Assembly: GCA_947624135.1 (NCBI GenBank)
Contig: CANQIV010000002.1
Coordinates: 1-45,850, forward strand
Reading direction: 5' to 3'
Source: an uncultured Bacilli bacterium
GTDB lineage: Bacteria; Bacillota_I; Bacilli_A; RF39; UBA660
Length of the DNA stretch: 45,850 nucleotides
The notes below the pieces were generated by a model. The model was not told the DNA's origin, searched no databases, and was given only the letters and a program-made list of their open reading frames with translations. Of the stretch, positions 9,382 to 42,044 are shown in pieces; positions within the stretch are counted from its first letter, which is position 1; every line of letters begins with the position of its first letter. The position numbers were made by a program, and so were the translations under genes.

Positions 9382-9410
9382 ATTTTAGCACATTGTCTTA
9401 TTTATGTCAA
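9382..9410 (-). promoter_or_regulatory. Sigma-A-like promoter for the U32 pair
   Basis: On the minus strand: TTGACA (9410..9405, overlapping the upstream stop), a 17-nt spacer, then TGcTAAAAT (extended -10, 9387..9382). Confidence 0.45.
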
Positions 9411-22414: not shown

Positions 22415-22422
22415 TATATCAC

Positions 22423-23414: not shown

Positions 23415-23422
23415 ATTATCTC

Positions 23423-24847: not shown

Positions 24848-24863
24848 TATTTCACCTCCAAAA

Positions 24864-25520: not shown

Positions 25521-25521
25521 A

Positions 25522-27558
25522 TTAATCCTTCTTTTCATATACAATTACATATTGAATGATATCATTCGCATAAGCTTCAAATAATTTTGGATTATCATTT
25601 TTCGCTGGATCAATTATGTATACCTCATTATTTTCTATATCAACATAATCAATAGCTACATAATGTGATGTGGCTAAGCTTGGTAAATACATTTGTAAAA
25701 CCATATAATAATTTTCTTTATTAAATTCGTTTAATTTTTCTACTATGCTTTTTCTTCCCAAAACTCTAAGGTTTGCTTCATCAACCTCTACAAAGTTTGG
25801 CGCAAGTTTTTGTTGGCTTCCCCAAATATAAATACCATCACTAAATGTAAATGTTTTAGCTGCAACACTAGGATCTATTGGAGTTATAGTTGTTTTTGTT
25901 CCACTACGTGCGATTTGCATCGCAATTGATGTAATTAAGCAACCCCACTTGCATATTGTATGAGCACTGTTTTGTAGTGTAACACTACCCCATTTTGAAT
26001 CACATTGTTTCCATGTTCTCCAATTTCCAGGATTTTGATTTGGTTTTATCGTTGTTCCACCAGTTGATGGAGTTTGTGGATTTTGCGATGAACCAGTTGA
26101 TGAGCCAGGTGTTGGTTTTGCATTTAAAGGAACCTCTTCTTCTAAAAAATATTTCTTCTCTAAAAATTGTTTTAAAAAATCTCTATATTTTTCATCATCA
26201 TCTCGCCATTTTGGTTCGGATACATTATAAGTTTCACCTTCGTCACATTCTAATACTTGTGTACCTATTTGGTCATCTACTATTTCATTTTGTTTAGTTA
26301 CTTTACCATCTTCATCTGTACATGTTTCAGTGGCATATTTAGTAAACATGTGTTGAACTAATATCTCTATATCATGTTCACTTGTACTAAGCGTTGTTAC
26401 ATAACTTGACCAATCTTTATCATAATCAAAATTTGATAAATAGTCATCGTCTTTTATTTCTGCTCTATCTGCAGCACTTAAATTTAATCTAAATACTTCG
26501 TTCATATCATCTGATTGAATAATTAAAGTTGACATAAGTAGTGGTAAATCAATTTCTACTTTATATTCATCTCTATATACTTTATATATATTAAGCAATT
26601 TAAAGAAGAAATCGTATACCATATTTTCATCATATTCTCTAGCCATATCAGTAACTGATGGATAAAAATCTCTTAATTGAGATAAATCTGCTTCATTATA
26701 TTTTCTTACTTTTGCTGTTGATACTAAATTAGATTTCAATTTAGAATTTACAAACTTTAAATTTCTATCGCCTAAATCAATGTAAGCAACATCATCTGTT
26801 ATTTCTTCATTAACATCATCTTCTTTTGCTTCATTTATTTTGTTTTCAGCATCAGTTGCAGATATTGAATCTGCATGACCCAATTTTACTGAATTTAAAT
26901 ATATTTGTGATGCTGAAATCATAAGGCAACAAAAGACAATTATACCAAAAGATGGCCCCATAGCTATTAAAGCCCACTTAATAACTTTTAAAGGTACTTT
27001 AAATACTGCTTGAAGGGAACTATCCTCTTCTTGTTCTTGAACCTCATTTTGTCCCATTATTCCTCCAAGTAAATTGGTTAATGGATTCTTTTTCTTTTTT
27101 TTATTTCCAAATTTTTGTATGATATCAGTACTTGATGATTCATCATTTGCTGCATTGAGATTTGCACCTTGGTTGTTTGGATTAGAATTTGTTTGTGGAT
27201 TAATTCCATTATTTGGCATTAAACCATTTCTATTATTTGGATTAATACCTCTATTTGGGTTAATACCACTATTTGAATTAATACCACTACTTGGATTATT
27301 CAAGCCACTAGAATTATTATTCATATTATTTGATGGGGTATTTGGATTATTTTGTAAATTTCTACCTCCACCTAAATTATTATGATTATTACTAGACATC
27401 ATTGGTTTACTACTTTTTTGATTTTTATTAAAATTTTTTAAATTTCTATCATATGAATTTACTTTTTGATGTAATCTTTGTGCTTCATTAGAGGCATTTA
27501 AATTCTTCATATAATTTTCTTTATTATTTTTTGCTAAAGTTTCTTGGTTATTATTCAT
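25522..27558 (-). CDS. Membrane protein with an N-terminal Asn/Pro/Gly-rich disordered region and a C-terminal papain-like (peptidase C39-like) domain
   Basis: 678 aa with AGGAGG SD. Residues ~40-137 are low-complexity. A TM segment follows (WALIAMGPSFGIIVFCCLMISA). The C-terminus has Q...CKWGCLITSIAMQIA ... SHYVAIDYVD ... IIDP, which fits a Cys/His/Asp triad arrangement. Confidence 0.65.
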   Translation of the reverse strand: MNNNQETLAKNNKENYMKNLNASNEAQRLHQKVNSYDRNLKNFNKNQKSSKPMMSSNNHNNLGGGRNLQNNPNTPSNNMNNNSSGLNNPSSGINSNSGINPNRGINPNNRNGLMPNNGINPQTNSNPNNQGANLNAANDESSSTDIIQKFGNKKKKKNPLTNLLGGIMGQNEVQEQEEDSSLQAVFKVPLKVIKWALIAMGPSFGIIVFCCLMISASQIYLNSVKLGHADSISATDAENKINEAKEDDVNEEITDDVAYIDLGDRNLKFVNSKLKSNLVSTAKVRKYNEADLSQLRDFYPSVTDMAREYDENMVYDFFFKLLNIYKVYRDEYKVEIDLPLLMSTLIIQSDDMNEVFRLNLSAADRAEIKDDDYLSNFDYDKDWSSYVTTLSTSEHDIEILVQHMFTKYATETCTDEDGKVTKQNEIVDDQIGTQVLECDEGETYNVSEPKWRDDDEKYRDFLKQFLEKKYFLEEEVPLNAKPTPGSSTGSSQNPQTPSTGGTTIKPNQNPGNWRTWKQCDSKWGSVTLQNSAHTICKWGCLITSIAMQIARSGTKTTITPIDPSVAAKTFTFSDGIYIWGSQQKLAPNFVEVDEANLRVLGRKSIVEKLNEFNKENYYMVLQMYLPSLATSHYVAIDYVDIENNEVYIIDPAKNDNPKLFEAYANDIIQYVIVYEKKD
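27196..27309 (-). repeat. Imperfect in-frame ~18-nt tandem repeats encoding (S/R/N)GINPN units
   Basis: Repeated ATTTGGATTAATACC-like units on the plus strand. The protein reads SGINSNSGINPNRGINPNNRNGLMPNNGINPQ. Confidence 0.7.
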
Positions 27559-30241: not shown

Positions 30242-32272
30242 TTAATGTCTATTCTCTCTTTGTGCTTGTTGTTCAATAAGTTGCGCTCTTCTATATTTTG
30301 AACTACCTTGAATTTCAGCAGTTCTATCTTCTGCTCTTTGAACTGCAGCGCCAATGTCTGCTGCATTAACTGATTGTCCCATATCGTAATCACTATTCAT
30401 TTGTTCCATTTTATGAACATTTGAAGATACTATATAGTCTTGTGTTGCATCCTTAAACGCATTATCAAATCCTGATATTTGTGAATTTCCAATGTTTATT
30501 GAACTTTGACTTAAACTAGAAGCATTATTAATATATGCGTTTACTGCCGCTTTTCTCGCTTTAAAATATTCAGCGTTAGCTTCTGCAGCATTTTTAGCTT
30601 GAGTATTTAATCTATCTTGGAACTCTTCATCTGATTCATTTTCTTGTCTTTGAACTTGAGTATTTTTTAATATTTCATATTTATCTCTAAGAGCAGCTAA
30701 ATTTTTGCCATCAACCTGTATCATATTAGCTTTTTTATCTATTTCACTTTCAGCTCTACTTTTTGCTGCCTTACCAGCTTCAGCAAATTCTTTTAAGTGT
30801 TCAAGTTCAGTCTTATATTTAAGCGCTTCATTAGGTATAGATAAATGTCTTCTAATATTTTCTCCTGCTAATTCTAAACCACTAATGCCTAGTTGTTCTC
30901 TACTAGCACGATTTACCCTAGCTTGCATTGCTCTAGAATAAGCATTTGAAAAATTCTTACCAAATTTTTCTCCTCTAAGTGCTCCTCTTAATCCTCTAGC
31001 ACTTGCACTTAAACCACCTGCGACTGCGCTACTTAAGCTTCTAGCTGCAAAAAGGTTTGTTCCGAGTGCTGCTGCACCTGCTAATCCTGCACCTGCTAAT
31101 CCTTTAGTGAATCCAACAATTTTTTTACCACCTAATGCTTCATTTTTAAACTTTTTAATTGGATTTAATTGGAATCCTCCTCCATCAAGTTTAAGTCCTA
31201 ATCCTTCAAGTATTTTAGGAAATTGTTGAGCAAACATTAGGGCACCTATAAGTATAAATAAAAATACGAAAAAATTTGTTTGAGTAGAACCATCTACTAT
31301 ATCCGTCATAGTACCAAGCTTACCTATAATGTAAATTGCAAAGTATAAAGCAATTAACCTTAAAAATAAACTTGCATATGTTTTTAAACACATTTGATAC
31401 CATTTTTTAAATAAACCATCTTTACCGCTTTTAGGATCAACATAAGAAATAATTGGAACAGGTGCGATTAATTGTAAAAAAGCTAGTTTTATGCTTCTTA
31501 GTGCAACATCCATACAAAATGAAATAAGTATAAGCACTACTACCACTCCAAGTATTGTACTAAATAAGAATCTATATTGCATAATAAAGTTATCATTTTT
31601 TTTATCTGTTGCAAGTGCTAAATCCTGCCTAAATACTAAATCAAAATCATTAACTTGATAGCCATTTTCATAATTACCCAATGTTGTAGTGCTGAAATTA
31701 CTATTATTTTCCGTAAATTTTTCCATAGCATCAAAACATTTTTTATCTACACTGATACAATCTTGCATACCATCAATTGACGAATTAGGAAGGAAAAATG
31801 GTCGCATTGTATTATATACAATAACATCGCCAGCTTTACTAAAAAAGTTTGAACTAGTTTCATCATTTTCATTACCTAAAATAAGTTCTGCAAGAGAATT
31901 GTCTTCTAGCACTATTGTTTGGAGTTGAATTGCTGCATTAAATATATAAGGAGTTAAAACTAAAAGTCCCAAAGATATTACTATATTTAAACCAAGTTTT
32001 GATACACCTTTTGATTTATCCGAAAAATCATCAGGATTAACAATGTACATTATCAAAGAAAATGTTACTTTAAATACCATAAATACTGCAAGTAACTTAT
32101 AAATTTTATCTGCCATATTTATAATATCAGATTGAGATAATATTGAGGTTCTTGCTATAACTATTAATAAATTATAAACGTCGCCCATAAATCCATATAT
32201 GATGTTATCTAACGCAAAGAAAAATTGTCTAATCAATTTTTGGAACCACATATTTAGTGATAATACGTACAT
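30242..32272 (-). CDS. VirB6/TrbL/TcpH-like polytopic channel protein with a long Ala/Gly-rich and coiled-coil C-terminal tail
   Basis: 676 aa with about 6-7 TM segments in the first ~360 aa. These are followed by GLAGAGLAGAAALG..., then a charged helical region. SD is TAGGAGGAG. Confidence 0.7.
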   Translation of the reverse strand: MYVLSLNMWFQKLIRQFFFALDNIIYGFMGDVYNLLIVIARTSILSQSDIINMADKIYKLLAVFMVFKVTFSLIMYIVNPDDFSDKSKGVSKLGLNIVISLGLLVLTPYIFNAAIQLQTIVLEDNSLAELILGNENDETSSNFFSKAGDVIVYNTMRPFFLPNSSIDGMQDCISVDKKCFDAMEKFTENNSNFSTTTLGNYENGYQVNDFDLVFRQDLALATDKKNDNFIMQYRFLFSTILGVVVVLILISFCMDVALRSIKLAFLQLIAPVPIISYVDPKSGKDGLFKKWYQMCLKTYASLFLRLIALYFAIYIIGKLGTMTDIVDGSTQTNFFVFLFILIGALMFAQQFPKILEGLGLKLDGGGFQLNPIKKFKNEALGGKKIVGFTKGLAGAGLAGAAALGTNLFAARSLSSAVAGGLSASARGLRGALRGEKFGKNFSNAYSRAMQARVNRASREQLGISGLELAGENIRRHLSIPNEALKYKTELEHLKEFAEAGKAAKSRAESEIDKKANMIQVDGKNLAALRDKYEILKNTQVQRQENESDEEFQDRLNTQAKNAAEANAEYFKARKAAVNAYINNASSLSQSSINIGNSQISGFDNAFKDATQDYIVSSNVHKMEQMNSDYDMGQSVNAADIGAAVQRAEDRTAEIQGSSKYRRAQLIEQQAQRENRH

Positions 32273-32318: not shown

Positions 32319-32327
32319 ATTATAACA
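32319..32327 (-). promoter_or_regulatory. Extended -10 element (TGtTATAAT) upstream of the VirB6-like gene
   Basis: It directly follows the terminator T-tract on the minus strand. No good -35 is present. Confidence 0.35.
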
Positions 32328-32360
32328 AAAAAAGTACAAATAATCAATATATTTGTACTT
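32326..32360 (-). terminator. Strong rho-independent terminator after paralogue P3
   Basis: On the minus strand: 11-bp stem AAGTACAAATA / TATTTGTACTT, a 7-nt loop, then TTTTTGTT. Confidence 0.8.
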
Positions 32361-32369
32361 AATTAATCA

Positions 32370-32756
32370 TTATTCAACTACATCAGCAGGTTCGCAAGCA
32401 TTAACACTTTCTTCACCTGTTATAAAGCAATTAAAGCATTTAACTACAGATGGAGCATCTTTACCAGATACGAATCTAATAATAGTTTGAGTTAATTGTA
32501 TTACAAAGAATACTATTACAGCAGCAACTATTCTTTTTATAAAAGTTTGTTGACCTTTTTTAATTTCATCTTCCTTAGAAGCCATTACTGCCTTTCCTAA
32601 ATCTAACATACCAAATACTATTAATAATATTGGTACTACAATTTTAATAATCAAAACTATTGTTGATATTACTTTTGGAAATGTACCAGAAAACACTAAG
32701 CCACCTGAACCACAAGTGTAATCTAAATCCATTGAAGCTTTCGCTAAAAACATCAT
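32370..32756 (-). CDS. Two-TM pilin-like protein with VirB2/TrbC-like topology (paralogue P3), candidate major subunit
   Basis: 128 aa: YTCGSGG...VVPILLIVFGMLDLGKAVMASKEDEIKKGQQTFIKRIVAAVIVFFV...KCFNCFITGEESVNAC. It has its own promoter, AGGAGG SD and terminator. Confidence 0.75.
   Translation of the reverse strand: MMFLAKASMDLDYTCGSGGLVFSGTFPKVISTIVLIIKIVVPILLIVFGMLDLGKAVMASKEDEIKKGQQTFIKRIVAAVIVFFVIQLTQTIIRFVSGKDAPSVVKCFNCFITGEESVNACEPADVVE
32503..32573. repeat. 71-nt segment near-identical (single mismatch) to 34987-35057
   Basis: ACAAAGAATACTATTACAGCAGCAACTATTCTTTTTATAAAAGTTTGTTGACCTTTTTT is identical in both copies. One T/A difference follows, then ATTTCATCTTC is again identical. Confidence 0.85.
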
Positions 32757-32779
32757 ATTTTTTCCTCCTAATCAATTAA

Positions 32780-32809
32780 ATTATAATATATATTGATACT
32801 AAATGTCAA
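32780..32809 (-). promoter_or_regulatory. Near-consensus sigma-A promoter for P3
   Basis: On the minus strand: TTGACA (32809..32804), an 18-nt spacer, then TATAAT (32785..32780). AGGAGG SD follows. Confidence 0.6.
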
Positions 32810-32814
32810 TATTT

Positions 32815-33939
32815 TTATTTTATTATATATGGATTTTCACTTGAACCAATACCTTCAGTGTATAATTCATTACCATCTACATATATAACGATATTATAAT
32901 CATTATAATCATTCGCATTTGTAGTACGCATCATACCATTGGATAAATATATTACTCCATATGTATTATCACTTACAGAGTTTAAAGTCCAAGTTGATTG
33001 AGCTACTCTATATAAATAGTTATAGTTATTGCAAGCTCTAGAATTTGTAGAATTACAATCTTGATCTAAACTAGCAGATGCATAATCAGATACATTTATT
33101 AGTGATATTACTTGTCCTTGTAATACCTCAGAACAATCTGTACTTTTGTTTATGGAATAATCATTTGATGAACGTTTTCCTATACAAACATCATAAGCTA
33201 CAATGTGCTCTCTAGCTTTTTTACTTATTACTTTAGAATTGTTATAATCATTTAGTAAATATTTTAATATTTGACTATCTTTATAAATATTTTTCCCATA
33301 ATAATGTTCAACATCAACATTATATTTATTATCCCAAATTCTATCTATATCTTCAGAATCTTCTTTAACTAATTTTAAAACTCCATTTGAATCTATGCTC
33401 ATTATTCTATAGTTAACCCCAAAGAATGTTATATAATTTTTAGGATTATCTCCTTTAAATATATATGTATTATCTATTTGATATAATCCTGAATCAGACG
33501 TAACTACATTTTCTTTTAATTTATCTACTAAATGAACTGTAGAATAATCTTTACATTTTAAATCAACTGTATAATTTAAGAATCCTTCTGCATTTTTTTC
33601 AACTGAATTTCCATTTCTTCTTACAGTAACGCTACCTGTACAAGTATCATCTTTAAGAGCCTTCGCAGGATCTTTTAAAGATGTATTTTTTACTAATTCA
33701 TCAAGAGTTACTTTAGCAGTTTGAGCTTCTTTTGTTGGTATCATATCTTTATTTTTAAAGTATACATTTGCAGCTGAAATCATTTTTTTCTCATACGCAT
33801 CATAATTCATTTTACGATTACTACAACCTTGAATGATTGCTAAAAAGATTATTAATAAAATTGGCAACACAAGTAAAGAAATCGCTATTATCAAAAATTT
33901 TCTATCTAATTTTTTTAGTGCATTTATCATGTCTTTCAC
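32815..33939 (-). CDS. N-terminally anchored, Cys-containing surface protein (possible pilus-associated adhesin)
   Basis: 374 aa with one TM (FLIIAISLLVLPILLIIFLAII). The ectodomain has paired Cys (DDTCTGSV...DLKC) and ends in GSSENPYIIK. No confident family assignment. Confidence 0.65.
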   Translation of the reverse strand: MKDMINALKKLDRKFLIIAISLLVLPILLIIFLAIIQGCSNRKMNYDAYEKKMISAANVYFKNKDMIPTKEAQTAKVTLDELVKNTSLKDPAKALKDDTCTGSVTVRRNGNSVEKNAEGFLNYTVDLKCKDYSTVHLVDKLKENVVTSDSGLYQIDNTYIFKGDNPKNYITFFGVNYRIMSIDSNGVLKLVKEDSEDIDRIWDNKYNVDVEHYYGKNIYKDSQILKYLLNDYNNSKVISKKAREHIVAYDVCIGKRSSNDYSINKSTDCSEVLQGQVISLINVSDYASASLDQDCNSTNSRACNNYNYLYRVAQSTWTLNSVSDNTYGVIYLSNGMMRTTNANDYNDYNIVIYVDGNELYTEGIGSSENPYIIK

Positions 33940-33945
33940 CTACTA

Positions 33946-34512
33946 CTATTTACATTCGCCACTTGAATTAACACCATTTAAGAAACAATTAGCGCAATTC
34001 ATTATACCACCATTATTATCTGATACAAAGCTAATTACTAATTTAACTATCGCGATAACAAAGAATACTATTGCTGCAGCAATTACTCTTTTAATCAAAG
34101 TTTGTTGACCTTTTTTTATTTCATCTTCTTTTTGTCCCATAACTGCTTTTACTAAATCCATCATACCAAATACTACAAGTAATACTGGTACTATTATTTG
34201 AATTATCATAATTATGTTATGAACTGTATTTGGAATTTTAGGATCGATATCAACTCCTGGAAGCACTGCTGCACATCCTGACAATTCATTTATCGAAGCT
34301 GTACCTGTAGATGTTGCTCCTGTGGATGTTTTATTTGATTCAGTTGATGTACCTACTTCATCATCCCATTCTAAGCATTCACCTCTTTGTGTATGATTAC
34401 AAGTAGGATCTTGACAAATTGTATCCCATTTTTTACAAGTTCTTGCAGATACATTTGGAATCATCAACATAGTAAGCATAATTAAAGTTACAAATATAAA
34501 TCTTTTTTTCAT
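33946..34512 (-). CDS. Two-TM pilin-like protein (paralogue P4) with signal peptide and an extra Cys-rich / Thr-Ser-Gly-rich N-terminal extension
   Basis: 188 aa: signal peptide ...NVSA, RTCKKWDTICQDPTCNHTQRGEC, then SGCAAV...IVPVLLVVFGMMDLVKAVMGQKEDEIKKGQQTLIKRVIAAAIVFFV...NCANCFLNGVNSSGEC. Confidence 0.75.
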   Translation of the reverse strand: MKKRFIFVTLIMLTMLMIPNVSARTCKKWDTICQDPTCNHTQRGECLEWDDEVGTSTESNKTSTGATSTGTASINELSGCAAVLPGVDIDPKIPNTVHNIIMIIQIIVPVLLVVFGMMDLVKAVMGQKEDEIKKGQQTLIKRVIAAAIVFFVIAIVKLVISFVSDNNGGIMNCANCFLNGVNSSGECK

Positions 34513-34515
34513 AAA

Positions 34516-34869
34516 TTACCACTCTTTCTTACATTTATTACTTATAAAGCAATCAACGCATTCTACTAAATTTGCTTTGCCAGTATTTGAAACCACACTA
34601 ACTATTAATTTTACAGCAGCTACAACAAAAAATACCATAGCTCCTGCAATTAATCTTTTTACAAATATTTGTCTTCCCTTTTTCATTTCATCTTCTTTTT
34701 GACTTGTTATACCTTTTACTAAATCAAGGCTTCCCATTATTACTAAAATTATTGGAACAGCTATCATTAGTATATTAATAAAATCACTTGTAAGTTCTGG
34801 TATTTTAGCAGGTATTGAGGTTACATTACCACAACTAACTTTACTAGTTAAAATCATAAAATTCATCAT
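34516..34869 (-). CDS. Two-TM pilin-like protein (paralogue P5)
   Basis: 117 aa: VSCGNVTSIPAKIPEL...AVPIILVIMGSLDLVKGITSQKEDEMKKGRQIFVKRLIAGAMVFFV...ECVDCFISNKC. There is an ATGA overlap with P6. Confidence 0.75.
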   Translation of the reverse strand: MMNFMILTSKVSCGNVTSIPAKIPELTSDFINILMIAVPIILVIMGSLDLVKGITSQKEDEMKKGRQIFVKRLIAGAMVFFVVAAVKLIVSVVSNTGKANLVECVDCFISNKCKKEW

Positions 34870-35312
34870 GTATTACCTCCCGTAGTTGTACATTTATTAT
34901 TTATAAAACATTCAATACAATCTACCATATTTCCAGTTTGACTCTTATCAGCTACCATACTAACTACAATTTTTACTGCAGCAAGTACAAAGAATACTAT
35001 TACAGCAGCAACTATTCTTTTTATAAAAGTTTGTTGACCTTTTTTTATTTCATCTTCTTTTTGACCCATTATTCCTTTTACTAAATCAAGGCTTCCAAAA
35101 ATTACAAGAACTATAGGAACAACTATTTGAATTATATTATATATTATATTTACCATTTTGGGTATAGAAGCTGGAATATTATTTACATTTCCACAACTGA
35201 CAACTGAACTTGAGAAATTATCATAACTTATAGCTCCTACAATGTCAATAAATATTACATTAATTAACAATATTATAGTTAAAATTAATATTGTTTTTTT
35301 ACCTTTCTGCAT
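34866..35312 (-). CDS. Two-TM pilin-like protein (paralogue P6) with signal peptide
   Basis: 148 aa: VSCGNVNNIPASIPKM...VVPIVLVIFGSLDLVKGIMGQKEDEIKKGQQTFIKRIVAAVIVFFV...DCIECFINNKC. SD is AGGGGG. Confidence 0.75.
   Translation of the reverse strand: MQKGKKTILILTIILLINVIFIDIVGAISYDNFSSSVVSCGNVNNIPASIPKMVNIIYNIIQIVVPIVLVIFGSLDLVKGIMGQKEDEIKKGQQTFIKRIVAAVIVFFVLAAVKIVVSMVADKSQTGNMVDCIECFINNKCTTTGGNT
34987..35057. repeat. Second copy of the 71-nt near-identical segment (see 32503-32573)
   Basis: Direct repeat in the same orientation, inside P6. It covers the loop/TM2 coding region. Confidence 0.85.
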
Positions 35313-35322
35313 ATACTGCCCC

Positions 35323-36315
35323 CTATTTAAGTCTACTAAATCCTAGTTCAATTAACATTTTATCTAGTTCAGGAATACTCCTCAATCTATCATTTAGAGG
35401 CGCTAAATTATAGAACACTTTAAGTTTTGACTCATATTCAAAATTAGATACATCACTTTGACTTAATAAACTTTTATTTAATACTACTTTCTTACCCTTT
35501 AATGTAGTTAAACAATTAGGATTAAAAGTCATTAATTTTTGTAATTTTATTATAGATGGTTCGATTAAATAAAGTACATCATGACAAAATCCTAAAGCAG
35601 AATCACTATTATTTACATCTATTATTATTACATCTTTATTCTTATAATTGTTTATTGTAGATCCTACATTATTAGATGTTGTAGAAATCATATATTTATC
35701 TCTATAATATGAAAAGTCAGTTTTATCCACTTCAATTGCAACAACATCATAATTTTTACTTAATTCTTGTTTCATCATGTATGCTAAACTTGTCGCACCT
35801 GCTTGTTTAGTAACGTTTTTTATACCTATTATGGTTTTATCAAAAGAGTCACTTACAGGTTCTGGTTTAGATAGCATTGAAAATGAAAACGCAGGCTTTT
35901 TAGGTTGCTCAACTGGTTCTGGTTGCTCAACAACATTTATTTTATGAAATTGTGCGACATCTCTATAAGTATTTGGAGTATTATATAAATATTGAATACC
36001 ATCAGCATTCTTTGTAAAATTATAAATACCCATAGATACTAAATTAGATAAAAATGTTGGATTTTCTGTTGCTTCTGTTCCGTCTAAAAGTAATATTAAC
36101 TTTTCAGTATCAAGAGAAATTGATAATTTTTGCAAATTACTAATATCAGTATAGTTTTTTATTGCTGTTATGTCAAGTATCATTCTTTGATAAAAGAAAT
36201 TTTGAAATGTTGATATTATGGTATCTACATCAAATTCTCCTTCCATCTCTTTAATTATATCTACACCTAAATTATCTAATAAATATTTTTGTTTATTTGC
36301 TATTATAACATTCAT
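35323..36315 (-). CDS. TadZ/CpaE-like ParA/MinD-fold protein with a degenerate Walker A and an N-terminal receiver-like domain
   Basis: 330 aa. IIGIKNVTKQAGATSLAYMMKQEL aligns with the KGGxGxT(T/S)xA region, but KGG is replaced by KQA. A later IIIDV (Walker B-like) is present. It lies within a Tad gene context. Confidence 0.6.
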   Translation of the reverse strand: MNVIIANKQKYLLDNLGVDIIKEMEGEFDVDTIISTFQNFFYQRMILDITAIKNYTDISNLQKLSISLDTEKLILLLDGTEATENPTFLSNLVSMGIYNFTKNADGIQYLYNTPNTYRDVAQFHKINVVEQPEPVEQPKKPAFSFSMLSKPEPVSDSFDKTIIGIKNVTKQAGATSLAYMMKQELSKNYDVVAIEVDKTDFSYYRDKYMISTTSNNVGSTINNYKNKDVIIIDVNNSDSALGFCHDVLYLIEPSIIKLQKLMTFNPNCLTTLKGKKVVLNKSLLSQSDVSNFEYESKLKVFYNLAPLNDRLRSIPELDKMLIELGFSRLK

Positions 36316-36330
36316 AATCTATTTCCCCTT

Positions 36331-36759
36331 TTAATAACGATATTTTTTACCAAGTATTTTTGTTTCACCCTTAATAGGAATATTTAACATATCACCTATC
36401 AAAGGAATATCAAATTGCATATATGTTACTACTTTATAATATTCGCCATTATTTGTTTTAAATGGCCCATATATACAATATTTATAATTTGATTTATTAA
36501 GATTTGTCATACCATCCATCATTGGACAATTAAGACTTCTAACCGTAATATAGCCTGCTTTATGTAAATCCTCATTTATCATTGCTATTGAGTTTGGATT
36601 ATTATCATAACCATTGTTGTTTTCTACAACCTCAATAATTCTATCCTTTATTCTATATGCTTTTGAATAAGCTAAAACACCTACGAATAAAAGCATAACA
36701 ATAGAAATTATAAAAATCGCTATATTTAAAAGATATCCTCCACCAAGAGCAGCTTTCAT
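36331..36759 (-). CDS. TadE-like minor pilin / pseudopilin (paralogue A)
   Basis: 142 aa: short leader MKAALGGG followed by a hydrophobic helix. The C-terminus YCIYGPF...GEYYKVVTYMQFDIPLIGDMLNIPIKGET parallels the next gene. Confidence 0.6.
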   Translation of the reverse strand: MKAALGGGYLLNIAIFIISIVMLLFVGVLAYSKAYRIKDRIIEVVENNNGYDNNPNSIAMINEDLHKAGYITVRSLNCPMMDGMTNLNKSNYKYCIYGPFKTNNGEYYKVVTYMQFDIPLIGDMLNIPIKGETKILGKKYRY

Positions 36760-36771
36760 TATATCACACCC

Positions 36772-37236
36772 TTATCCAAATTTTTTTTCAAAATCATAAA
36801 ATCTAATTGTATTTGTATATATAGGTACATTTACTATATCTTTTATTATTGGTATATTTAATTGCGCATTTGTTTTAATTTTATAGTAATAGTATGGTTC
36901 ACCGTTAGCATCACTTGTATCACATAGATAAATACAATATCCTTCTGAACCCTTGTTTCCATCTTTATCTAATGAACATACAGACCCACTTTTTTCATTA
37001 ACACTTTTATCACATGTTATTTTATTTTTATTATAACCAATACTAGTAATTTTATTTTCTATCTCTTTTTTAGCTAATTCATTATAGCCTTCATGTCTTT
37101 CGATAGCATCGGTTATAATATTATTTGTTTTATTTTCTTTAAAATATATAAAGGTTCCAGTTATAAAGAAAAATATTATTACTATAAATACAATCATAAT
37201 ATTGAGTGTTACTGTATAACCAATACTTTCATTCAT
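36772..37236 (-). CDS. TadE-like minor pilin / pseudopilin (paralogue B)
   Basis: 154 aa: leader MNESIG followed by a hydrophobic helix. The C-terminus is YCIYLCD...GEPYYYYKIKTNAQLNIPIIKDIVNVPIYTNT. SD is AAGGAGG. Confidence 0.6.
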   Translation of the reverse strand: MNESIGYTVTLNIMIVFIVIIFFFITGTFIYFKENKTNNIITDAIERHEGYNELAKKEIENKITSIGYNKNKITCDKSVNEKSGSVCSLDKDGNKGSEGYCIYLCDTSDANGEPYYYYKIKTNAQLNIPIIKDIVNVPIYTNTIRFYDFEKKFG

Positions 37237-37262
37237 AGCAAACCTCCTTATTATCTATAACA

Positions 37263-37292
37263 ATTATAACAATTTGTAGGTCATTTTGTCAA
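37263..37292 (-). promoter_or_regulatory. Near-consensus sigma-A promoter for the pseudopilin/TadZ/pilin-like paralogue operon
   Basis: On the minus strand: TTGACA (37292..37287), an 18-nt spacer, then TGtTATAAT (-10 at 37268..37263). AAGGAGG follows. Confidence 0.6.
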
Positions 37293-37360
37293 TTAATTTT
37301 AGTATTTCAAACACATTATACATATTTTTTTACATTTAATTTATACTTTTATTATATTTA

Positions 37361-37388
37361 AACAAAAAAAGAGATTTATTATCTCTTT
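37361..37388 (-). terminator. Rho-independent terminator after the pilin gene
   Basis: On the minus strand: AAAGAGAT-AATAA-ATCTCTTT followed by TTTTGTTT. Confidence 0.75.
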
Positions 37389-37407
37389 ATAGGTTAATTA
37401 AATAATA

Positions 37408-37650
37408 TTATTTACACTCTGTACTAATCTGGTCTAGTCCTGTACAATTCTTCTTTTCACCATTGTCACCTATCTCACATGATGCATAACAATGACCATT
37501 ATTCCATACACCACCATTTGATGTACAACAAGAACTTTTTGAGGTATTACTCATCATATTTCTTACTATTACTGTACCTACCGCAAGTACTATAGCTATT
37601 AATACTATTGTTATTACTGTCATGTTTGCCTCTCCAGCTGCTTCTTTCAT
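37408..37650 (-). CDS. Small Cys-rich Flp/Tad-type pilin candidate
   Basis: 80 aa: MKEAAG / EANMTVITIVLIAIVLAVGTVIV, then a 45-residue tail with seven Cys (SSCCTSNGGVWNNGHCYASCEIGDNGEKKNCTGLDQISTEC). It lies immediately downstream of tadC. It has its own promoter, AAAGGAGGAG SD and terminator. Confidence 0.7.
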   Translation of the reverse strand: MKEAAGEANMTVITIVLIAIVLAVGTVIVRNMMSNTSKSSCCTSNGGVWNNGHCYASCEIGDNGEKKNCTGLDQISTECK

Positions 37651-37681
37651 TAATATCTCCTCCTTTATTTTTCCTAACTTG

Positions 37682-37711
37682 ATTATATAACATTTAAATT
37701 ATAAAAATCAA
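37682..37711 (-). promoter_or_regulatory. Sigma-A-like promoter for the pilin gene
   Basis: On the minus strand: TTGATT (37711..37706), an 18-nt spacer, then TATAAT (37687..37682). Confidence 0.5.
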
Positions 37712-37756
37712 TACTTTTATATTATTATTTACATCTTTTTTACACTATATACATAA

Positions 37757-38551
37757 TTATGCTACATTCATCATTAATGTCATTGATATAAATAGTACTA
37801 AAAGAACTCCACCGCCTGTTACAAATAACATCATAAGTGTTCTTTTTTCCATTGCTTCAAGACGATCTTTATATTTTTGTTCACGTGCTTTATTTTGAAG
37901 TTGTGAAACTGTTCTTGAAAACATCATTATTTGTTCATGTTTATCTTCATTTGATCCAAGTCCAACACGATATAAAAGTCTCATCATTCTCATTGAGTCT
38001 CTTACTGGATATTCATTAGCAAAGTCAACATATGGTTGTATAGTTGAATCACCTGCATCTATTTTAGCAGTTAATTCTCTAAGTCCAGATTGAAATATTT
38101 CTGGAGCTGTATCTATACTTTTTGAAATTGCTACTGGAACTGTATAGTGTTGAACTAATATTTCCAAACTCTTTAAATAATATGGAAGCATTGAATCCAT
38201 ATAATGTAATCTTGCTTTATAATAACTTTTTAAATTTGAATATCCACTTTTAAATATGATAAATCCTAAAATTATTACAAATAAGACGTACATATAACTA
38301 AATGAACCTGTAATTAGTAAGAAAAATATTCCAACTAATATAGTTATTACACCATTTCTTATTCTTGCTTCAAAAAGCTTATTTATGTCTAAATCTTGAT
38401 TTGGATATTTTACTCTAAGTAAAAATTCATAATCTTTTTCCATAAATTTTTTTAAAAATGGATTAACTCTTCTTATAAATGATTTTGCATCTAATATTTG
38501 GTTATAAACAAATATCAATATTACAGCAACTATTACTATTAAAAATTCCAT
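37757..38551 (-). CDS. tadC: Tad pilus platform protein TadC-like (T2SSF family)
   Basis: 264 aa. TM segments flank a cytoplasmic helical domain. It is the second of two consecutive T2SSF-like genes after the ATPase, with a 1-nt overlap with tadB. Confidence 0.75.
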   Translation of the reverse strand: MEFLIVIVAVILIFVYNQILDAKSFIRRVNPFLKKFMEKDYEFLLRVKYPNQDLDINKLFEARIRNGVITILVGIFFLLITGSFSYMYVLFVIILGFIIFKSGYSNLKSYYKARLHYMDSMLPYYLKSLEILVQHYTVPVAISKSIDTAPEIFQSGLRELTAKIDAGDSTIQPYVDFANEYPVRDSMRMMRLLYRVGLGSNEDKHEQIMMFSRTVSQLQNKAREQKYKDRLEAMEKRTLMMLFVTGGGVLLVLFISMTLMMNVA

Positions 38552-39450
38552 TATTCAGCCCCCACATTCTCATTATAAAATTTAGTACCTGCTATTAAAA
38601 AGGCAGAATTAATGATAACTATTATATGTAATAAAAGTTGACCATACCATAAAGTTAACATTTGGTGATAAGAATCTCCTAACATTATTTGAGCTAAACC
38701 TATCATTAGATACAAAACCAAACCGAATTGAACAAATTTTTTATAGAAAGCTGCTCTATCAATTCTATCTCTATAAACAGCCTCTACAAGCATATCTATG
38801 TCTAGTGACATGTTTTCAAGCGAATCACTAGCATCTTTAGAACCTTCATTAGTTATTTGAAGGAATAATTGATGCATATTTCTTACGATAAAATAATCGT
38901 ATTTTTCATTCATATAAGTTAGTGAATCATTTATTGTTCCGTTTTCATACGCCATATCTATCATTTGTTTTACATCTGATTTTACTGGATCTTCAAGTAC
39001 TCCTGATGAATATACACCTTCGAGTGCTTTTACGAAACTTTGTGTAGTAGCAAATTCCATTATAACGTTTGTAGTATATACTTGAATTTGTTCAAAAATA
39101 AATTCACTATAAATTCTTTTACATCTAAGGTAATTTATATATGGAACTACTGACGCTGCAGCAACTGCATATATAAGTGATATAATTAAGTTATAAAAGT
39201 ATAGATATGTTACAACTCCTCCACCAACAGCAAATAAAATGGTTTGTCCAATATATTGCGCCATTGTATAATCTTGCCCCATATCTTTAATTTTCTGACG
39301 TATTTCTTTATATGTATAAGGAGCAACTTTGCCATATACTTGCATGCTTTTTTTCTTTATAGAATTAGTTACATATTCGCCTAAACCACTCCTATAGATT
39401 ACTAAGAATACTATAAGAATTGCAACTATAATAAAAGCTATTTTATACAT
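38551..39450 (-). CDS. tadB: Tad pilus platform protein TadB-like (T2SSF family)
   Basis: 299 aa with an N-terminal TM, a helical cytoplasmic domain and C-terminal TM pairs. It lies directly downstream of the TadA-type ATPase. Confidence 0.75.
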   Translation of the reverse strand: MYKIAFIIVAILIVFLVIYRSGLGEYVTNSIKKKSMQVYGKVAPYTYKEIRQKIKDMGQDYTMAQYIGQTILFAVGGGVVTYLYFYNLIISLIYAVAAASVVPYINYLRCKRIYSEFIFEQIQVYTTNVIMEFATTQSFVKALEGVYSSGVLEDPVKSDVKQMIDMAYENGTINDSLTYMNEKYDYFIVRNMHQLFLQITNEGSKDASDSLENMSLDIDMLVEAVYRDRIDRAAFYKKFVQFGLVLYLMIGLAQIMLGDSYHQMLTLWYGQLLLHIIVIINSAFLIAGTKFYNENVGAE

Positions 39451-39452
39451 AT

Positions 39453-40688
39453 CTATACCTCCTCATCAAAAATTATTTCATTTCCTCCTACACTATTTAT
39501 AGGAACACTTTGTTGTTGTACCATTTGTTTAAATTGATCATTTACATTAACTTGAGGTGCTTGACTTGCTAAAATGTCTTCGTTACCTACTCTAGCATCA
39601 AAGCTTTCAGCACCCGTTTCAGAATTATATGCTTCATCATTTTTAATAAAGCCCTCTGGAAGTCTTACACCTTGTGCTTCTAAATAATCAATTAAATATT
39701 TACTAGGATTTTTCCTATATACATGTCCATCTGGAGTCTTTTTATAAATTACATTATATTTTGCTTCATTATCTTCTGTTACATAAAATTCAGTAATTTC
39801 TCCTATTTCCCTAACAAAACTATGTGTAACTTTACTCATAAAACCTCTTATATATACACCAATTTGAATATATCTATATATAGATTTTAAAAACTGTTCG
39901 ATATCTTGATTTGTTTCAAGTAAACTATACATACGATTAGGAATAGAAGATGCTTTATCAGCATGTATTGTAGATAAAATATAATGTCCTGAAGAAATTG
40001 AGTTTCTTACTGCCATAACTGCTTCAGCACTACGTACCTCTGATAATAATATCCATTTTGGATTTTGTCTCATACATGTTACAAGAACATCTGAATAACT
40101 TGCTATATTATTAGTTTTCATAGCAACTATATCTCTATTTGGATATATTTTATCTAAGTGAAGTTCTAGTGTATCTTCTATTGTTATTAACTTTTCATTT
40201 TCTATTGTATTTGAAGCCAAGAATTTAATAAATTCTGTCTTACCACTACCTGTCTCACCACAAGCAATTATGTTACAATGTCCATGAACACAAGTTATTA
40301 AGAAATTTAGCATTTCTTCAGTTATATATTTTTCATTTATTATTTTGTTTCTTTCAAGTCTTATCTTGGCTGGCGTTTTACGAATAACGCATGCAATACC
40401 ATTTCTAGCAATAGAGTCATGTATGAAATTCATACGAAGTTCAGAACTTTCACTATCCAAAAATGGATGTGCTGCATTAAAACTTTTTCCCATTACGTTA
40501 GAGCACTGGAAAGCAAGTTTTTCCATAAAACTATTATTAACTGCAGGGTTTTCAACCCTAAAAATCCCCTTTGACAAAGTTTTTAACCATAATTGACCAT
40601 TATTGCTATAAGAAATATCGGTAATATCATCATTGTCTAAATATTCTTTTAATGGACCAAAGTCCATTCCCTCAAAAACGTTATCCAT
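39453..40688 (-). CDS. tadA: TadA/CpaF-type secretion ATPase (T2SSE/VirB11 superfamily)
   Basis: Walker A GETGSGKT, Asp box ITIEDTLEL, Walker B ILLSEVR and His box ILSTIHA. Confidence 0.88.
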   Translation of the reverse strand: MDNVFEGMDFGPLKEYLDNDDITDISYSNNGQLWLKTLSKGIFRVENPAVNNSFMEKLAFQCSNVMGKSFNAAHPFLDSESSELRMNFIHDSIARNGIACVIRKTPAKIRLERNKIINEKYITEEMLNFLITCVHGHCNIIACGETGSGKTEFIKFLASNTIENEKLITIEDTLELHLDKIYPNRDIVAMKTNNIASYSDVLVTCMRQNPKWILLSEVRSAEAVMAVRNSISSGHYILSTIHADKASSIPNRMYSLLETNQDIEQFLKSIYRYIQIGVYIRGFMSKVTHSFVREIGEITEFYVTEDNEAKYNVIYKKTPDGHVYRKNPSKYLIDYLEAQGVRLPEGFIKNDEAYNSETGAESFDARVGNEDILASQAPQVNVNDQFKQMVQQQSVPINSVGGNEIIFDEEV

Positions 40689-41551
40689 TATTGATTTGGA
40701 GTAACTGTTTTATCATCAGTTGTAGTTGTATTATCTGTAGTATCTGTAGTATTATCGTCTATTTCTTCCTGAATAGCATCTTCCTCAATTGTAGTTGTTA
40801 GGGCGTCAATATAATCTCTTAAAGTTGCGCTTGTTACGATTATATAATTTTCTGTTGGAACAGTTGTTCCTCTTGGCGCTAAAATAAGTTCTACGTTATT
40901 TAAGTATTCTGTTTTCTTTAATAGTATATACATATCTTGTCTAGCAGCAAATCCTATTTTAGCTGGAGTTAATACCTCATCAGTATCTCCAAATACATCA
41001 TCACCATTACTATCGTGTACTGCAAGAACTTTAATGTTCTTCATAAGTTTACCAAATAGTATAGCTCCATTTTCATCTGTTGCTTTCATATATATATCTA
41101 CATATGAATCTGGAAGAACGTTATTTCCTAATGTACTTTCAACAGTAACGTCCATGTAATAACCATATTCACCATTTTTTACATCCAATTTTTCAATCCA
41201 ATTTCCTGGAACATCTTTTTCATCTACTAACCATTCACTATAAAATAAGCTTCCCTCTGGAATTGTTACATTTATATTTGTATATTTACCTATTATAGCA
41301 TTTGAAGCACGTAAAGCATTCTCACTTATCATACTACCTGGTATTTGTTTATAAACAACATCTTCTCCAGTTATTTCAGTTTTTGGATTAATCTTTTGTG
41401 CTGCAGTTGGCATATTAACTGGACTAGTTTCTCTTTTTATACTTGATGTATATCCCCAATATAACACAATCAATATTACTATTACAAGAATAACAGTAAC
41501 AACATTTTTATTAGTAAAGAATTTTTTTAAACCTATAACAAAATTATTCAT
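40688..41551 (-). CDS. cpaB: Flp pilus assembly protein CpaB/RcpC-like (SAF domain)
   Basis: N-terminal TM, then a SAF-like segment (ITGEDVVYKQIPGSMISENAL...IIGKYTNINVTIPEGSLF). An RcpC-like segment follows (LPDSYVDIYMKA...IKVLAVHD), then an acidic Thr/Asp-rich tail. Confidence 0.75.
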   Translation of the reverse strand: MNNFVIGLKKFFTNKNVVTVILVIVILIVLYWGYTSSIKRETSPVNMPTAAQKINPKTEITGEDVVYKQIPGSMISENALRASNAIIGKYTNINVTIPEGSLFYSEWLVDEKDVPGNWIEKLDVKNGEYGYYMDVTVESTLGNNVLPDSYVDIYMKATDENGAILFGKLMKNIKVLAVHDSNGDDVFGDTDEVLTPAKIGFAARQDMYILLKKTEYLNNVELILAPRGTTVPTENYIIVTSATLRDYIDALTTTIEEDAIQEEIDDNTTDTTDNTTTTDDKTVTPNQ

Positions 41552-41564
41552 TTTTTATCTCCTC

Positions 41565-41975
41565 TCAATATTCTGTTTCTAATATTGCATCTATATTATT
41601 TACAATATTAAAGTCTATTACTTCACCTGTAGAAGTATTTGATTTAGCGCTTGATACTCTCAAACTTACCTTAGGTGGAGTTTCTGTGATATCGTATATT
41701 TCTATTTTATATTCATTTGATAAATCTGCACTTTCAGCAAATCTACGAATAAAATTTTCAAGAAATTTTTGATCTTCTATTCTAACAGTTCCATCTTTTC
41801 TATAAGCTGCTAAATCTACTGCATCATACATAGATGCTTCAACAGCTTCTTTAAGTAAATTATAATTATGCTGATCAGTATTAGTAGAGGTTGATAAAAA
41901 CCATATAATTCCTATCGCAAGTACTCCTAATACTATGACTGCATACCCCCATATAGATTCTCTCAAAAATATCAC
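41565..41975 (-). CDS. TadE-like / pseudopilin-like protein
   Basis: The track start is GTG 41975. TTG at 41966, preceded by AGGTGG 9 nt upstream, would give MRESIWG/YAVIVLGVLAI, closely matching the MNESIG/Y leader at 36772-37236. Confidence 0.55.
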   Translation of the reverse strand: MIFLRESIWGYAVIVLGVLAIGIIWFLSTSTNTDQHNYNLLKEAVEASMYDAVDLAAYRKDGTVRIEDQKFLENFIRRFAESADLSNEYKIEIYDITETPPKVSLRVSSAKSNTSTGEVIDFNIVNNIDAILETEY

Positions 41976-42007
41976 CCACCTAACATATAGTGCCTACTAT
42001 TAATTTA

Positions 42008-42036
42008 ATTTTATCACATATTAAATTTTAAAACAA
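42008..42036 (-). promoter_or_regulatory. Possible internal promoter ahead of the TadE-like/cpaB/tadABC genes
   Basis: On the minus strand: TTGTTT, a 17-nt spacer, then TGaTAAAAT. AT-rich DNA makes chance matches likely. Confidence 0.35.
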
Positions 42037-42044
42037 CATTTTTT

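Follow-up and report, generated by a model that had tools for sequence, protein, structure and literature searches.

Within a 45,850-nucleotide (nt) stretch of contig CANQIV010000002.1 (assembly GCA_947624135.1) from an uncultured Bacilli bacterium, hereafter called the window, four genes (P3, P4, P5, and P6) encode small membrane proteins built on one shared two-helix module and lie directly upstream of genes for a type IV secretion system (T4SS). We read this array as a set of PF18895-family, VirB2-like subunits belonging to the adjacent chromosomal, monoderm-type T4SS, and we put the probability of this reading at about 0.55. On this reading, the branch of the family seen here is restricted to gut Bacilli. 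By "VirB2-like" we mean throughout a similarity in fold, membrane topology, and position among the genes, together with the PF18895 label; we do not mean proven homology. The window has a GC content of approximately 25% and carries nearly all of its genes on the minus strand.

Six copies of one module

When all six reading frames of the window are searched with a hidden Markov model (HMM) of the shared module of about 106 amino acids (aa), exactly six copies emerge: P3, P4, P5, P6, and the C-termini of two distant open reading frames (ORFs), 9407-10714 and 16438-17493 (Table 1). The HMM returns full-sequence E values of 1e-49 to 4e-28 (92 to 162 bits). Pairwise BLASTP comparisons among the six module ORFs give E values of 1e-11 to 3e-45, far beyond chance, and in nucleotide sequence the four local copies are 65 to 76% identical and make up a repeat family of 221 nt. 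An earlier note on this DNA had proposed that four ORFs and two distant C-termini share a module. Its coordinates are exact, and the observation is confirmed.

The sequence features listed in that note largely hold. The motif at the tip of the hairpin reads KEDEIKKGQQ in P3, P4, and P6, KEDEIKKAQQ in 9407-10714, and KDDEMKKAQQ in 16438-17493, all of which fit the loop motif proposed, and P5 departs from it by an Arg for a Gln (KEDEMKKGRQ). A CxxCF tail is likewise present in five of the six copies, the exception being 16438-17493, which terminates in "...NSCGIF". The proline of the first transmembrane (TM) helix is invariant in all six, and the Asp and Lys of the "DLxKA" element are retained. 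The N-terminal decorations are also as described: P3 and P5 have none, P6 begins with a signal peptide, and in P4 the signal peptide is followed by a Cys-rich, Thr/Ser/Gly-rich stretch. The interval assigned to the family (32370-35312) does hold the four module genes, together with a fifth, unrelated gene, h374.

A genome scan with one genome per species yielded 129 matches in 74 loci. The contigs of these 74 related loci were fetched, and the counts of flanking genes and gene order given below refer to those long enough to show the genes concerned. The module alignment drawn from them comprises 218 copies.

The N-terminal domains of the two distant proteins match no family. Both genes sit among housekeeping genes, far from the T4SS of the window, and a module-bearing gene at L063:9179-10333 occupies the same place, next to the RNase R gene on its downstream side. 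The closest match to 16438-17493 is, in many other loci, found inside the T4SS block, between the P3-type and VirB6-like genes.

Predicted topology of the hairpin

Each module is predicted to form a hairpin with both termini outside the cytoplasmic membrane and the charged tip in the cytoplasm. Across the 218 copies, conservation is highest in the 25-residue tip (top-residue frequency, 0.79), which carries 6.1 Lys plus Arg and 0.01 Cys per copy. The two hydrophobic helices show top-residue frequencies of 0.60 to 0.62, with 0.6 to 0.7 Lys plus Arg and 0.01 to 0.05 Cys per copy. The corresponding values are 0.50, 0.95, and 0.75 for the N-terminal flank and 0.46, 0.85, and 2.3 for the C-terminal flank, with cysteines confined to the flanks. 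Signal-peptide-like N-termini occur in 80 to 97% of copies at array positions 1 to 3 and in 3% at the P3-type position. Extensions preceding the module reach 347 aa at positions 1 to 3, and the median for the P3 type is 13 aa. Taken together, the signal peptides and the distributions of Lys/Arg and Cys argue for both ends outside and the tip in the cytoplasm.

An AlphaFold2 (AF2) model of P6, built on a 40-sequence alignment, also shows a hairpin, with helices at residues 49 to 82 and 86 to 120 (predicted local distance difference test [pLDDT] score of approximately 86 to 91 for both; mean for the model, 79). A small beta-hairpin (residues 37 to 47) precedes it and a short helix (129 to 138) follows. 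The topology that the earlier note had proposed, ends out and loop in, has thus gained support from the signal peptides, the Lys/Arg bias of the tip, the flank-only cysteines, and the modeled hairpin. Judged from the alignment, a tip that is the most conserved part of the protein is the pattern that a filament subunit would show.

The array adjoins genes of a monoderm-type T4SS

A gap of 97 nt separates P3 from the VirB6-like gene downstream of it, and a VirB3-like gene and then VirB4 come next. In the 74 loci, wherever the contig reaches, the array is always directly upstream of these VirB6-like, VirB3-like, and VirB4 genes. The h106, h180, and VirB4 ATPase ORFs overlap by 26 and 4 nt and jointly span one model (NF045975) of a fused VirB3-VirB4 protein from integrative and conjugative elements (ICEs) of Mycoplasma. 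Since h106 and h180 align to N-terminal parts of this model, we interpret h106 as VirB3-like and VirB4 as split into three ORFs. This three-way split is conserved across the related loci and is therefore not a sequencing frameshift. The closest models to the VirB4 are those of Mycoplasma ICEs and of Clostridioides CD1110.

The earlier note had pointed, with reservation, to NCBI "pilin-like" families from Mollicutes ICEs. Such a family exists (NF045849), and its neighbor families Mbov_0396 (E = 1e-11) and Mbov_0397 (E = 7e-103) match the genes next to the array in the same order, the Mbov_0395-0396-0397 order in Mycoplasma being inferred from consecutive locus tags.

We take CDS13 and CDS15 of the Mycoplasma ICE to include the counterpart of NF045849. 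A recent review describes these two proteins as VirB3-like, and the module proteins could by extension be VirB3-like themselves, VirB3 being another small two-TM protein encoded beside VirB4. We hold this to be very improbable. The VirB3 slot is already filled by h106, through a weak NF045975 alignment (E = 0.062) in an ORF that overlaps the next VirB4 piece. In addition, the basic N- and C-terminal ends of h106 point to an N-in/C-in topology, and the module is predicted to be the opposite, N-out/C-out with signal peptides.

We also find it very unlikely that the module is a general two-TM anchor or a small membrane effector (holin-like, immunity-like, or signaling) whose adjacency to the T4SS reflects lineage history only. 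Such a role would suit the two copies that anchor large ectodomains among housekeeping genes far from the T4SS, and the weak matches of the module to many unrelated membrane families show how little signal its sequence holds. On the other hand, the position of the array is strictly conserved in 74 species-level loci whose VirB4 proteins are 76 to 95% identical, and many of these loci carry the 16438-type gene within the T4SS block itself. The module family has no match in plasmid and phage collections, no lysis or toxin genes are found nearby, and the predicted N-out/C-out topology, with signal peptides in most copies, is unlike that of holins.

Relationship to known pilin families

The link to pilins runs through PF18895 (T4SS_pilin), for which the Pfam gathering score is 26.6 bits. 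All six window proteins align to nearly the full length of this 71-position model but score 15.5 to 20 bits (E = 7e-4 to 0.019), below that threshold. Among 38 trimmed family members used for Pfam and NCBIfam searches in forward and reversed form, 23 match PF18895 at E ≤ 0.01 (best, 1.2e-5) and none of the 38 reversed sequences does, so that the match is specific as to direction. However, 27 of the 38 reversed sequences match the unrelated DUF973 (best, 2.9e-5), which places E values of this size within the noise. In light of this control, we do not count weak Pfam or NCBIfam matches by themselves, and matches to MamI, MscL, and DUF621 were treated as noise.

Stronger evidence comes from the relatives. 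Of ten of the more divergent 16438-type proteins, encoded between the P3-type and VirB6-like genes of related loci, three pass the PF18895 gathering score and seven have PF18895 as their top or only match. The three that pass (L017:11947-13245, L023:9092-10192, and L072:10455-11831) score 28.4 to 28.5 bits, and the same ORFs reach 39 to 73 bits with an HMM made from small P3-P6-type proteins only. Precomputed PF18895 annotations are also carried by P0381, which is 69% identical to the module of 16438-17493, and by P0112, which is 51% identical to P6. On the basis of these passing and annotated relatives, we accept the module family as a divergent branch of PF18895, joined to it by a transitive link. 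A homologue search with the divergent 16438-type module returned two proteins and did not reach Patescibacteria or Mycoplasma sequences. The second pilin-like model, NF045849 (cut-off, 40 bits), matches only P4 in the window (13.7 bits; E = 0.038) and 12 of the 38 family members at E ≤ 0.1 (best, 0.0049). The window proteins thus lie below both cut-offs, and the PF18895 link is made through relatives that pass.

Several results weigh against a pilin-like assignment. The PF18895 E values cannot be trusted alone for such hairpins, as the reversed sequences show, and the window proteins remain below the Pfam and NCBIfam thresholds. As for TrbC/VirB2, whose hairpin topology the earlier note had invoked, profile searches show no similarity: there is no match to PF04956 among the window proteins and the 38 members, and hhalign against eight plasmid VirB2/TrbC proteins gives a probability of 0.09%. 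A search of the family profile against PDB sequences (E ≤ 10) returned chance matches only and no solved pilin. Foldseek comparison of the P6 model with the PDB likewise found no pilin but generic helical hairpins (ATP synthase c-subunit, HtrII), all with E > 2; Foldseek performs poorly on helical hairpins with no further structure, and this result says nothing either way. Compared with VirB2/TraA, whose loop is short and basic, the hairpin has a longer and more acidic tip. PF18895 and NF045849 themselves owe the name "pilin" to prediction, and the review cited above would class the Mycoplasma counterparts as VirB3-like. Finally, P6, P5, and P4 are predicted to be co-transcribed with Tad-like genes (see below), so it is the order of the genes and the parallel with Mycoplasma that assign them to the T4SS. 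The lack of similarity to VirB2/TrbC is not decisive, because pilins evolve too fast for profile matches across classes.

We also considered whether the pilin could correspond to the N-terminus of VirB6, as in the CedA/CedA1 type, and rejected this relationship (hhalign probability against the VirB6-like family of the loci, 0.4%).

P3 as candidate major subunit

The four array genes differ in how they appear to be expressed. P3 stands alone behind a perfect sigma-70 promoter and a strong ribosome-binding site, and a promoter matching at 11 to 12 of 12 positions is found at the same distance from the start codon of the P3-type gene in 60 of the 74 related loci. Directly past its stop codon lies a terminator-like element, overlapping a promoter-like site (10 of 12 positions; 32347..32319, with a TG extension) ahead of the VirB6-like gene. 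Past the stop codon of the P3-type gene, almost every related locus has a run of 5 to 10 T residues, with a hairpin of −5 kcal/mol or stronger in 31. A second perfect promoter precedes h154-h142-h330-P6-P5-P4-h374, a series in which genes overlap or are separated by 3 to 15 nt; the start codon of P5 and the stop codon of P6 overlap by 4 nt, and P6 starts 10 nt past the h330 gene. P6, P5, P4, and h374 are accordingly predicted to be co-transcribed with the genes upstream of them.

Copy number and conservation single out the same gene. Related loci hold one to seven module copies, the commonest layout being three copies, h374, and one further copy (30 loci). The P3 type is present, as best match, in 71 of the 74 loci, and it is the copy retained where the array shrinks. 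It shows 72% identity between loci, compared with 55 to 62% at the other array positions. A copy resembles its counterparts at the corresponding position of other arrays more closely than it resembles the other copies of its own locus; the duplication must therefore be old, and the paralogues have specialized. With its own promoter, its terminator, and the highest conservation, P3 is a candidate major subunit, and a lone P3 next to tightly packed P6, P5, P4, and h374 is what one would expect if an abundant major subunit were accompanied by lower-copy variants. The idea of major plus variant subunits, raised in the earlier note, is strengthened accordingly.

This division of labor bears on another explanation, in which the hairpins are integral-membrane channel subunits of the T4SS that never polymerize outside the membrane and whose tip docks VirB4 or VirD4. 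They would then be the Gram-positive equivalent of small, essential membrane proteins of T4SSs. The genomic context fits channel subunits as well as it fits pilins, and the most conserved part of the module is cytoplasmic, as would be expected of an ATPase-docking element. According to a review, VirB2 is needed for transfer even in systems without a pilus, and monoderm T4SSs are described as pilus-less. We nevertheless judge the channel explanation unlikely. The promoter and terminator of P3 suggest a stoichiometry far higher than that of the genes for the channel. It is also difficult to see why a fixed part of a channel would have three to six additional paralogues whose secreted N-terminal extensions vary and reach 347 aa, and relatives of these proteins pass the threshold of a pilin family. 

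Distribution of the family

A search of 1.84 billion cluster representatives with the family profile gives 9,296 matches at E ≤ 1e-3, of which 4,366 reach E ≤ 1e-10. Nearly all close relatives are metagenomic proteins without a name, and of the 120 that match P6 best, just 1 has a precomputed PF18895 annotation. The matches of the one-genome-per-species scan come nearly exclusively from gut metagenome-assembled genomes (MAGs) of rabbit, ruminant, mouse, and human origin, which submitters labeled mostly as Bacilli, Tenericutes, Mollicutes, or Bacillota, with GC contents of 24 to 34% throughout. The same locus is also found, at 25 to 32% GC, in contigs filed as Bacteroidaceae, Muribaculaceae, or Roseburia (L004, L030, L043, L045, L048, L060, L061, L067, and L074). 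Since this GC content seems low for those taxa, mis-binning or mislabeling of the public contigs is likely.

A conserved chromosomal block with Tad-like genes

Upstream of the array and nearly contiguous with it lies a co-oriented set of Tad-like pilus genes. It comprises h522, h217, a DUF5411 gene, the CpaB-like h287 (CpaB match, E = 9.5e-8), a CpaF/FlaI/VirB11-like ATPase, two polytopic proteins, h80, h154, h142, and h330. A co-oriented block of approximately 24 kb (20357-44263) joins this set directly to the monoderm-type T4SS. In the direction of transcription, the order is scpB and scpA (on the opposite strand), h522, h217, DUF5411, h287, ATPase, two polytopic proteins, h80, h154, h142, h330, P6, P5, P4, h374, P3, the 16438-type gene in many loci, VirB6-like, h106, h180, VirB4, h678, h226, M23 peptidase, VirD4, a rhodanese-like gene, and rmuC.

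Gene content and order are strikingly constant across the related loci. Most loci that are long enough also share the same housekeeping flanks, with scpA/scpB on one side and the rhodanese-like gene, rmuC, RNase R, and smpB on the other. In loci showing both, VirB4 is 76 to 95% identical and scpA 64 to 80%. No relaxase or integrase family was found among the scanned window proteins, and a relaxase elsewhere in the genome is possible. The window also shows no flanking direct repeats and no tRNA adjacent to the block, its sole tRNA lying beyond scpB at the window end. From these absences and the constant flanks we conclude that the block is a vertically inherited chromosomal system and not an ICE. 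An ICE or plasmid origin was rejected for want of a relaxase, an integrase, an att (attachment-site) repeat, and a plasmid or phage match, and in view of the conserved housekeeping flanks. What we find is thus a conserved chromosomal T4SS and Tad-like block, unlike ICEs or plasmids of the Tn916/pCW3 kind.

Given this arrangement, the array might serve the adjacent Tad-like system as accessory or anchoring subunits. P6, P5, P4, and h374 do follow h154-h142-h330 behind one perfect promoter, and the Tad-like set adjoins the array wherever the contig reaches that far. We see little chance of this, since the Tad-like set has a pilin candidate in h80 and pseudopilin candidates in h154 and h142, P3 as the copy that is universally retained adjoins the VirB6-like gene, and the gene order matches Mbov_0395-0396-0397, an ICE module without described Tad genes. 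No Tad family matches the module, apart from a trivial match to TadE (E = 0.44).

Within the Tad-like set, h80 is likely the pilin; it shows no obvious Flp G/XXXXEY motif. The DUF5411 gene keeps a fixed position in related loci that reach that far, which suggests that its product is a component of this pilus system.

The remaining gene of the array, h374, splits it into three copies and one, at a conserved position. Its product is membrane anchored through an N-terminal membrane helix, contains cysteines, and is predicted to be extracytoplasmic; many of its Cys, Tyr, and Trp residues are invariant. The AF2 model is confident (pLDDT, 85; predicted template modeling score, 0.81). We find no Pfam, NCBIfam, or PDB sequence match for h374, and all Foldseek matches to the PDB have E > 0.6. 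Judging from the model, h374 may have a new extracytoplasmic fold and perhaps acts as an adhesin or assembly factor.

On the other side of the block, h678 has a long Asn/Pro/Gly/Ser-rich low-complexity N-terminal region, which derives partly from three tandem 18-nt repeats (27234-27287). Its C-terminal "WGCLITS...HYVAIDY" resembles a cysteine-peptidase motif by eye only, with no family match, and h678 is a possible second cell-wall hydrolase.

Table 1. Coordinates of the array, its regulatory elements, and neighboring genes in the window
Feature	Position (nt)	Strand	Description
P3	32370..32756	-	128 aa, without signal peptide; module aa 13-118 (nt 32403-32720)
P3 tip (KEDEIKKGQQ)	32547-32576	-	P3 is directly upstream of the VirB6-like gene
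P4	33946..34512	-	188 aa; signal peptide, Cys-rich and T/S/G-rich N-terminal extension; module aa 80-185 (nt 33958-34275)
P5	34516..34869	-	117 aa, module only, aa 10-115 (nt 34525-34842)
P6	34866..35312	-	148 aa; signal peptide and module aa 37-142 (nt 34887-35204)
435-aa secreted protein	9407..10714	-	Large Cys-containing N-terminal ectodomain; C-terminal module aa 291-396 (nt 9527-9844)
351-aa secreted protein	16438..17493	-	C-terminal module aa 258-351 (nt 16441-16722), the most divergent of the copies
h374	32815..33939	-	Splits array 3+1; likely start 33930, giving 371 aa; unrelated to module
P3 promoter	32780..32809	-	Perfect sigma-70 consensus TTGACA-18 nt-TATAAT, then AGGAGG ribosome-binding site
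P3 terminator-like element	32327..32359	-	9-bp stem, −7.4 kcal/mol (RNAfold), run of seven T; directly past P3 stop
Second perfect sigma-70 promoter	37292..37263	-	Precedes h154-h142-h330-P6-P5-P4-h374
VirB6-like (TrbL_4; Mbov_0396 family)	30242..32272	-	Polytopic membrane protein; TrbL_4 E 9e-6, NF045889 E 1e-11
VirB3-like h106	29880-30200	-	NF045975 positions 2-77, E 0.062, weak
h180	29363-29905	-	NF045975 positions 102-276, E 9e-14
VirB4 ATPase	27579-29366	-	595 aa; NF045975 (Mbov_0397 family) positions 295-891, E 7e-103
h678	25522-27558	-	
Lipoprotein-like h226	within 20357..27558	-	
M23 peptidase	23423-24847	-	
Two small single-TM proteins	22423-23414	-	
VirD4 coupling protein	20357-22414	-	PF02534 E 3e-56; CD1115 family 294 bits, above cut-off
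Tad-like pilus gene set	35323..44263	-	Co-oriented, nearly contiguous with array
h80	37408-37650	-	80 aa, one N-terminal hydrophobic helix, six-Cys C-terminal domain
DUF5411 protein	41565-41975	-	E 2e-49; between h217 and CpaB-like gene

Proposed model

Under our preferred reading, that of VirB2-like T4SS subunits, each protein would sit in the cytoplasmic membrane as a two-helix hairpin, its N-terminus placed outside after signal-peptide cleavage (P4 and P6) or directly (P3 and P5). The C-terminus would also be outside, where a Cys before the first TM helix and the CxxC...C cluster after the second probably tie the outer ends into a small cap. The charged helical tip of approximately 25 residues (LDLxKAVMAQKEDEIKKGQQTFIKR) would lie in the cytoplasm, where the ATPases of the T4SS are located. 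P3 would be the abundant major subunit, made from its own, probably strong, promoter. P6, P5, P4, and h374 would act as lower-abundance variants or accessory subunits with their variable N-terminal extensions exposed, and the 435-aa and 351-aa proteins would be versions bearing whole ectodomains. If VirB2, CedA1, and TedC serve as the analogy, the VirB6/VirB3/VirB4 machine might extract the hairpins from the membrane. On the same analogy, they could then be stacked into a wall-spanning conduit or pilus, with the tip lining the lumen and the variable ends facing outward.

The later steps of this model are the more tentative ones. That the proteins form an extracellular filament is possible but, in our estimate, falls short of probable. 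Somewhat more doubtful is the specific picture of a true VirB2-type pilus or conduit built from P3 and decorated by the variant paralogues, encoded in a core chromosomal block and serving a host function. The chromosomal location, the conservation in the lineage, and the lack of a relaxase in view make a function for the host cell more probable than mobile-element transfer, and candidates are DNA exchange or import and contact with other cells.

Comparison with known systems

The nearest described arrangement is found in Patescibacteria. Their T4SSs carry tandem arrays of 2 to 11 divergent VirB2-like genes near virB4, in some cases with a non-pilin gene in between (Quinonero-Coronel et al. 2025, PMC12102498). 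The pilins were detected with PF04956 and PF18895, and the systems are chromosomal, MPF_FATA-like, usually without a relaxase, and co-occur with type IV pili (PMC12102498). Chromosomal T4SS pilin arrays of Patescibacteria are also credited to Wang et al. 2023, as cited in PMC12857230. The array described here shares with them the tandem divergent paralogues, an intervening non-pilin gene, a monoderm T4SS, a chromosomal location with no relaxase nearby, and a type-IV-filament neighbor. It differs in its Bacilli host, in the fixed 3+1 layout with a conserved intervening gene, and in having one copy with its own promoter and terminator. In addition, its paralogues are 44 to 59% identical, compared with an average of approximately 25% in the arrays of the candidate phyla radiation. 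PF18895 proteins, which are predicted T4SS pilins reported mainly from Patescibacteria, are, like the module, hydrophobic two-helix hairpins of about 70 residues, whereas the branch seen in the window has a longer near-invariant charged tip, a conserved outer set of four Cys, some fusions to large ectodomains, and gut Bacilli as hosts.

With the NF045849 proteins of Mycoplasma ICEs, the array has in common small hairpins encoded just upstream of Mbov_0396-like (VirB6-like) and Mbov_0397-like (VirB4) genes. The Mycoplasma genes, however, lie on mobile ICEs of wall-less cells, whereas here the genes are chromosomal and VirB4 is spread over three ORFs. Classical VirB2, TrbC, and TraA resemble the module proteins in predicted topology, in the size of the hairpin, in the signal peptide present in several copies, and in their place in a T4SS operon beside VirB3, VirB4, and VirB6. 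Their hosts are diderm, though, and they have a short basic loop and no conserved Cys set, in contrast to the mixed-charge helical tip observed here. For classical VirB2-type pilins a lipid-bound pilus has been shown.

VirB2-like pilins are also known from monoderm archaea, in the form of the unprocessed CedA1 and the signal-peptidase-processed TedC (Beltran et al. 2023, PMC9905601). Like the Ced and Ted DNA importers to which these belong (PMC9905601), which do not transfer a mobile element, the system in the window has chromosomal VirB6- and VirB4-like partners and probably serves no mobile element, and the contrast between unprocessed and processed forms has a predicted parallel in P3/P5 and P4/P6. 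It differs from them by adding VirD4 and cell-wall hydrolases, and the relationship between pilin and VirB6 of the CedA type was not found.

Implications

Monoderm T4SSs of this class have been described as lacking pilins. Guglielmini 2014 states that there are "no homologs to T4SS pilins in MPF_FATA", and a 2025 review names Patescibacteria as the single monoderm exception with VirB2. The literature thus agrees with the statement in the earlier note that no VirB2 belongs to the Gram-positive T4SS parts list, Patescibacteria excepted. Because MPF_FATA systems were thought to be pilin-less, the origin of the Patescibacteria pilins was left open, and the study of these arrays allowed for co-option from other T4SS classes.

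Our searches of the literature found nothing relevant on RF39 and type IV secretion and no description of this family or array. Given the "pilin-like" Mycoplasma ICE family already named by NCBI (NF045849) and the Patescibacteria arrays, the array does not represent a new kind of system. We regard it as a distinct variant from an unreported host group, set apart by its charged tip, four-Cys cap, 3+1 array, separately promoted copy, ectodomain-bearing versions, and coupling to Tad-like genes. A better family model would remedy the near-absence of names among the listed homologues of the family.

The locus places a PF18895-related, pilin-like array inside an MPF_FATA-related T4SS, in a Bacilli lineage of human, rodent, rabbit, and ruminant guts. 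Should these proteins form a filament, the origin of the Patescibacteria pilins would become testable by phylogeny, and the rule that conjugation-type systems of Gram-positive bacteria have no pili would fall for Bacillota. A true VirB2-type pilus would be the first conjugative-type pilus in Bacillota and would make pilins native to MPF_FATA rather than a Patescibacteria-specific acquisition. The T4SS and Tad-like supercluster would then be a candidate for mediating the cell interactions of these uncultured gut bacteria, and its host function might be cell-to-cell exchange of DNA or nutrients, like that of the essential Patescibacteria T4SS or the archaeal Ced and Ted systems.

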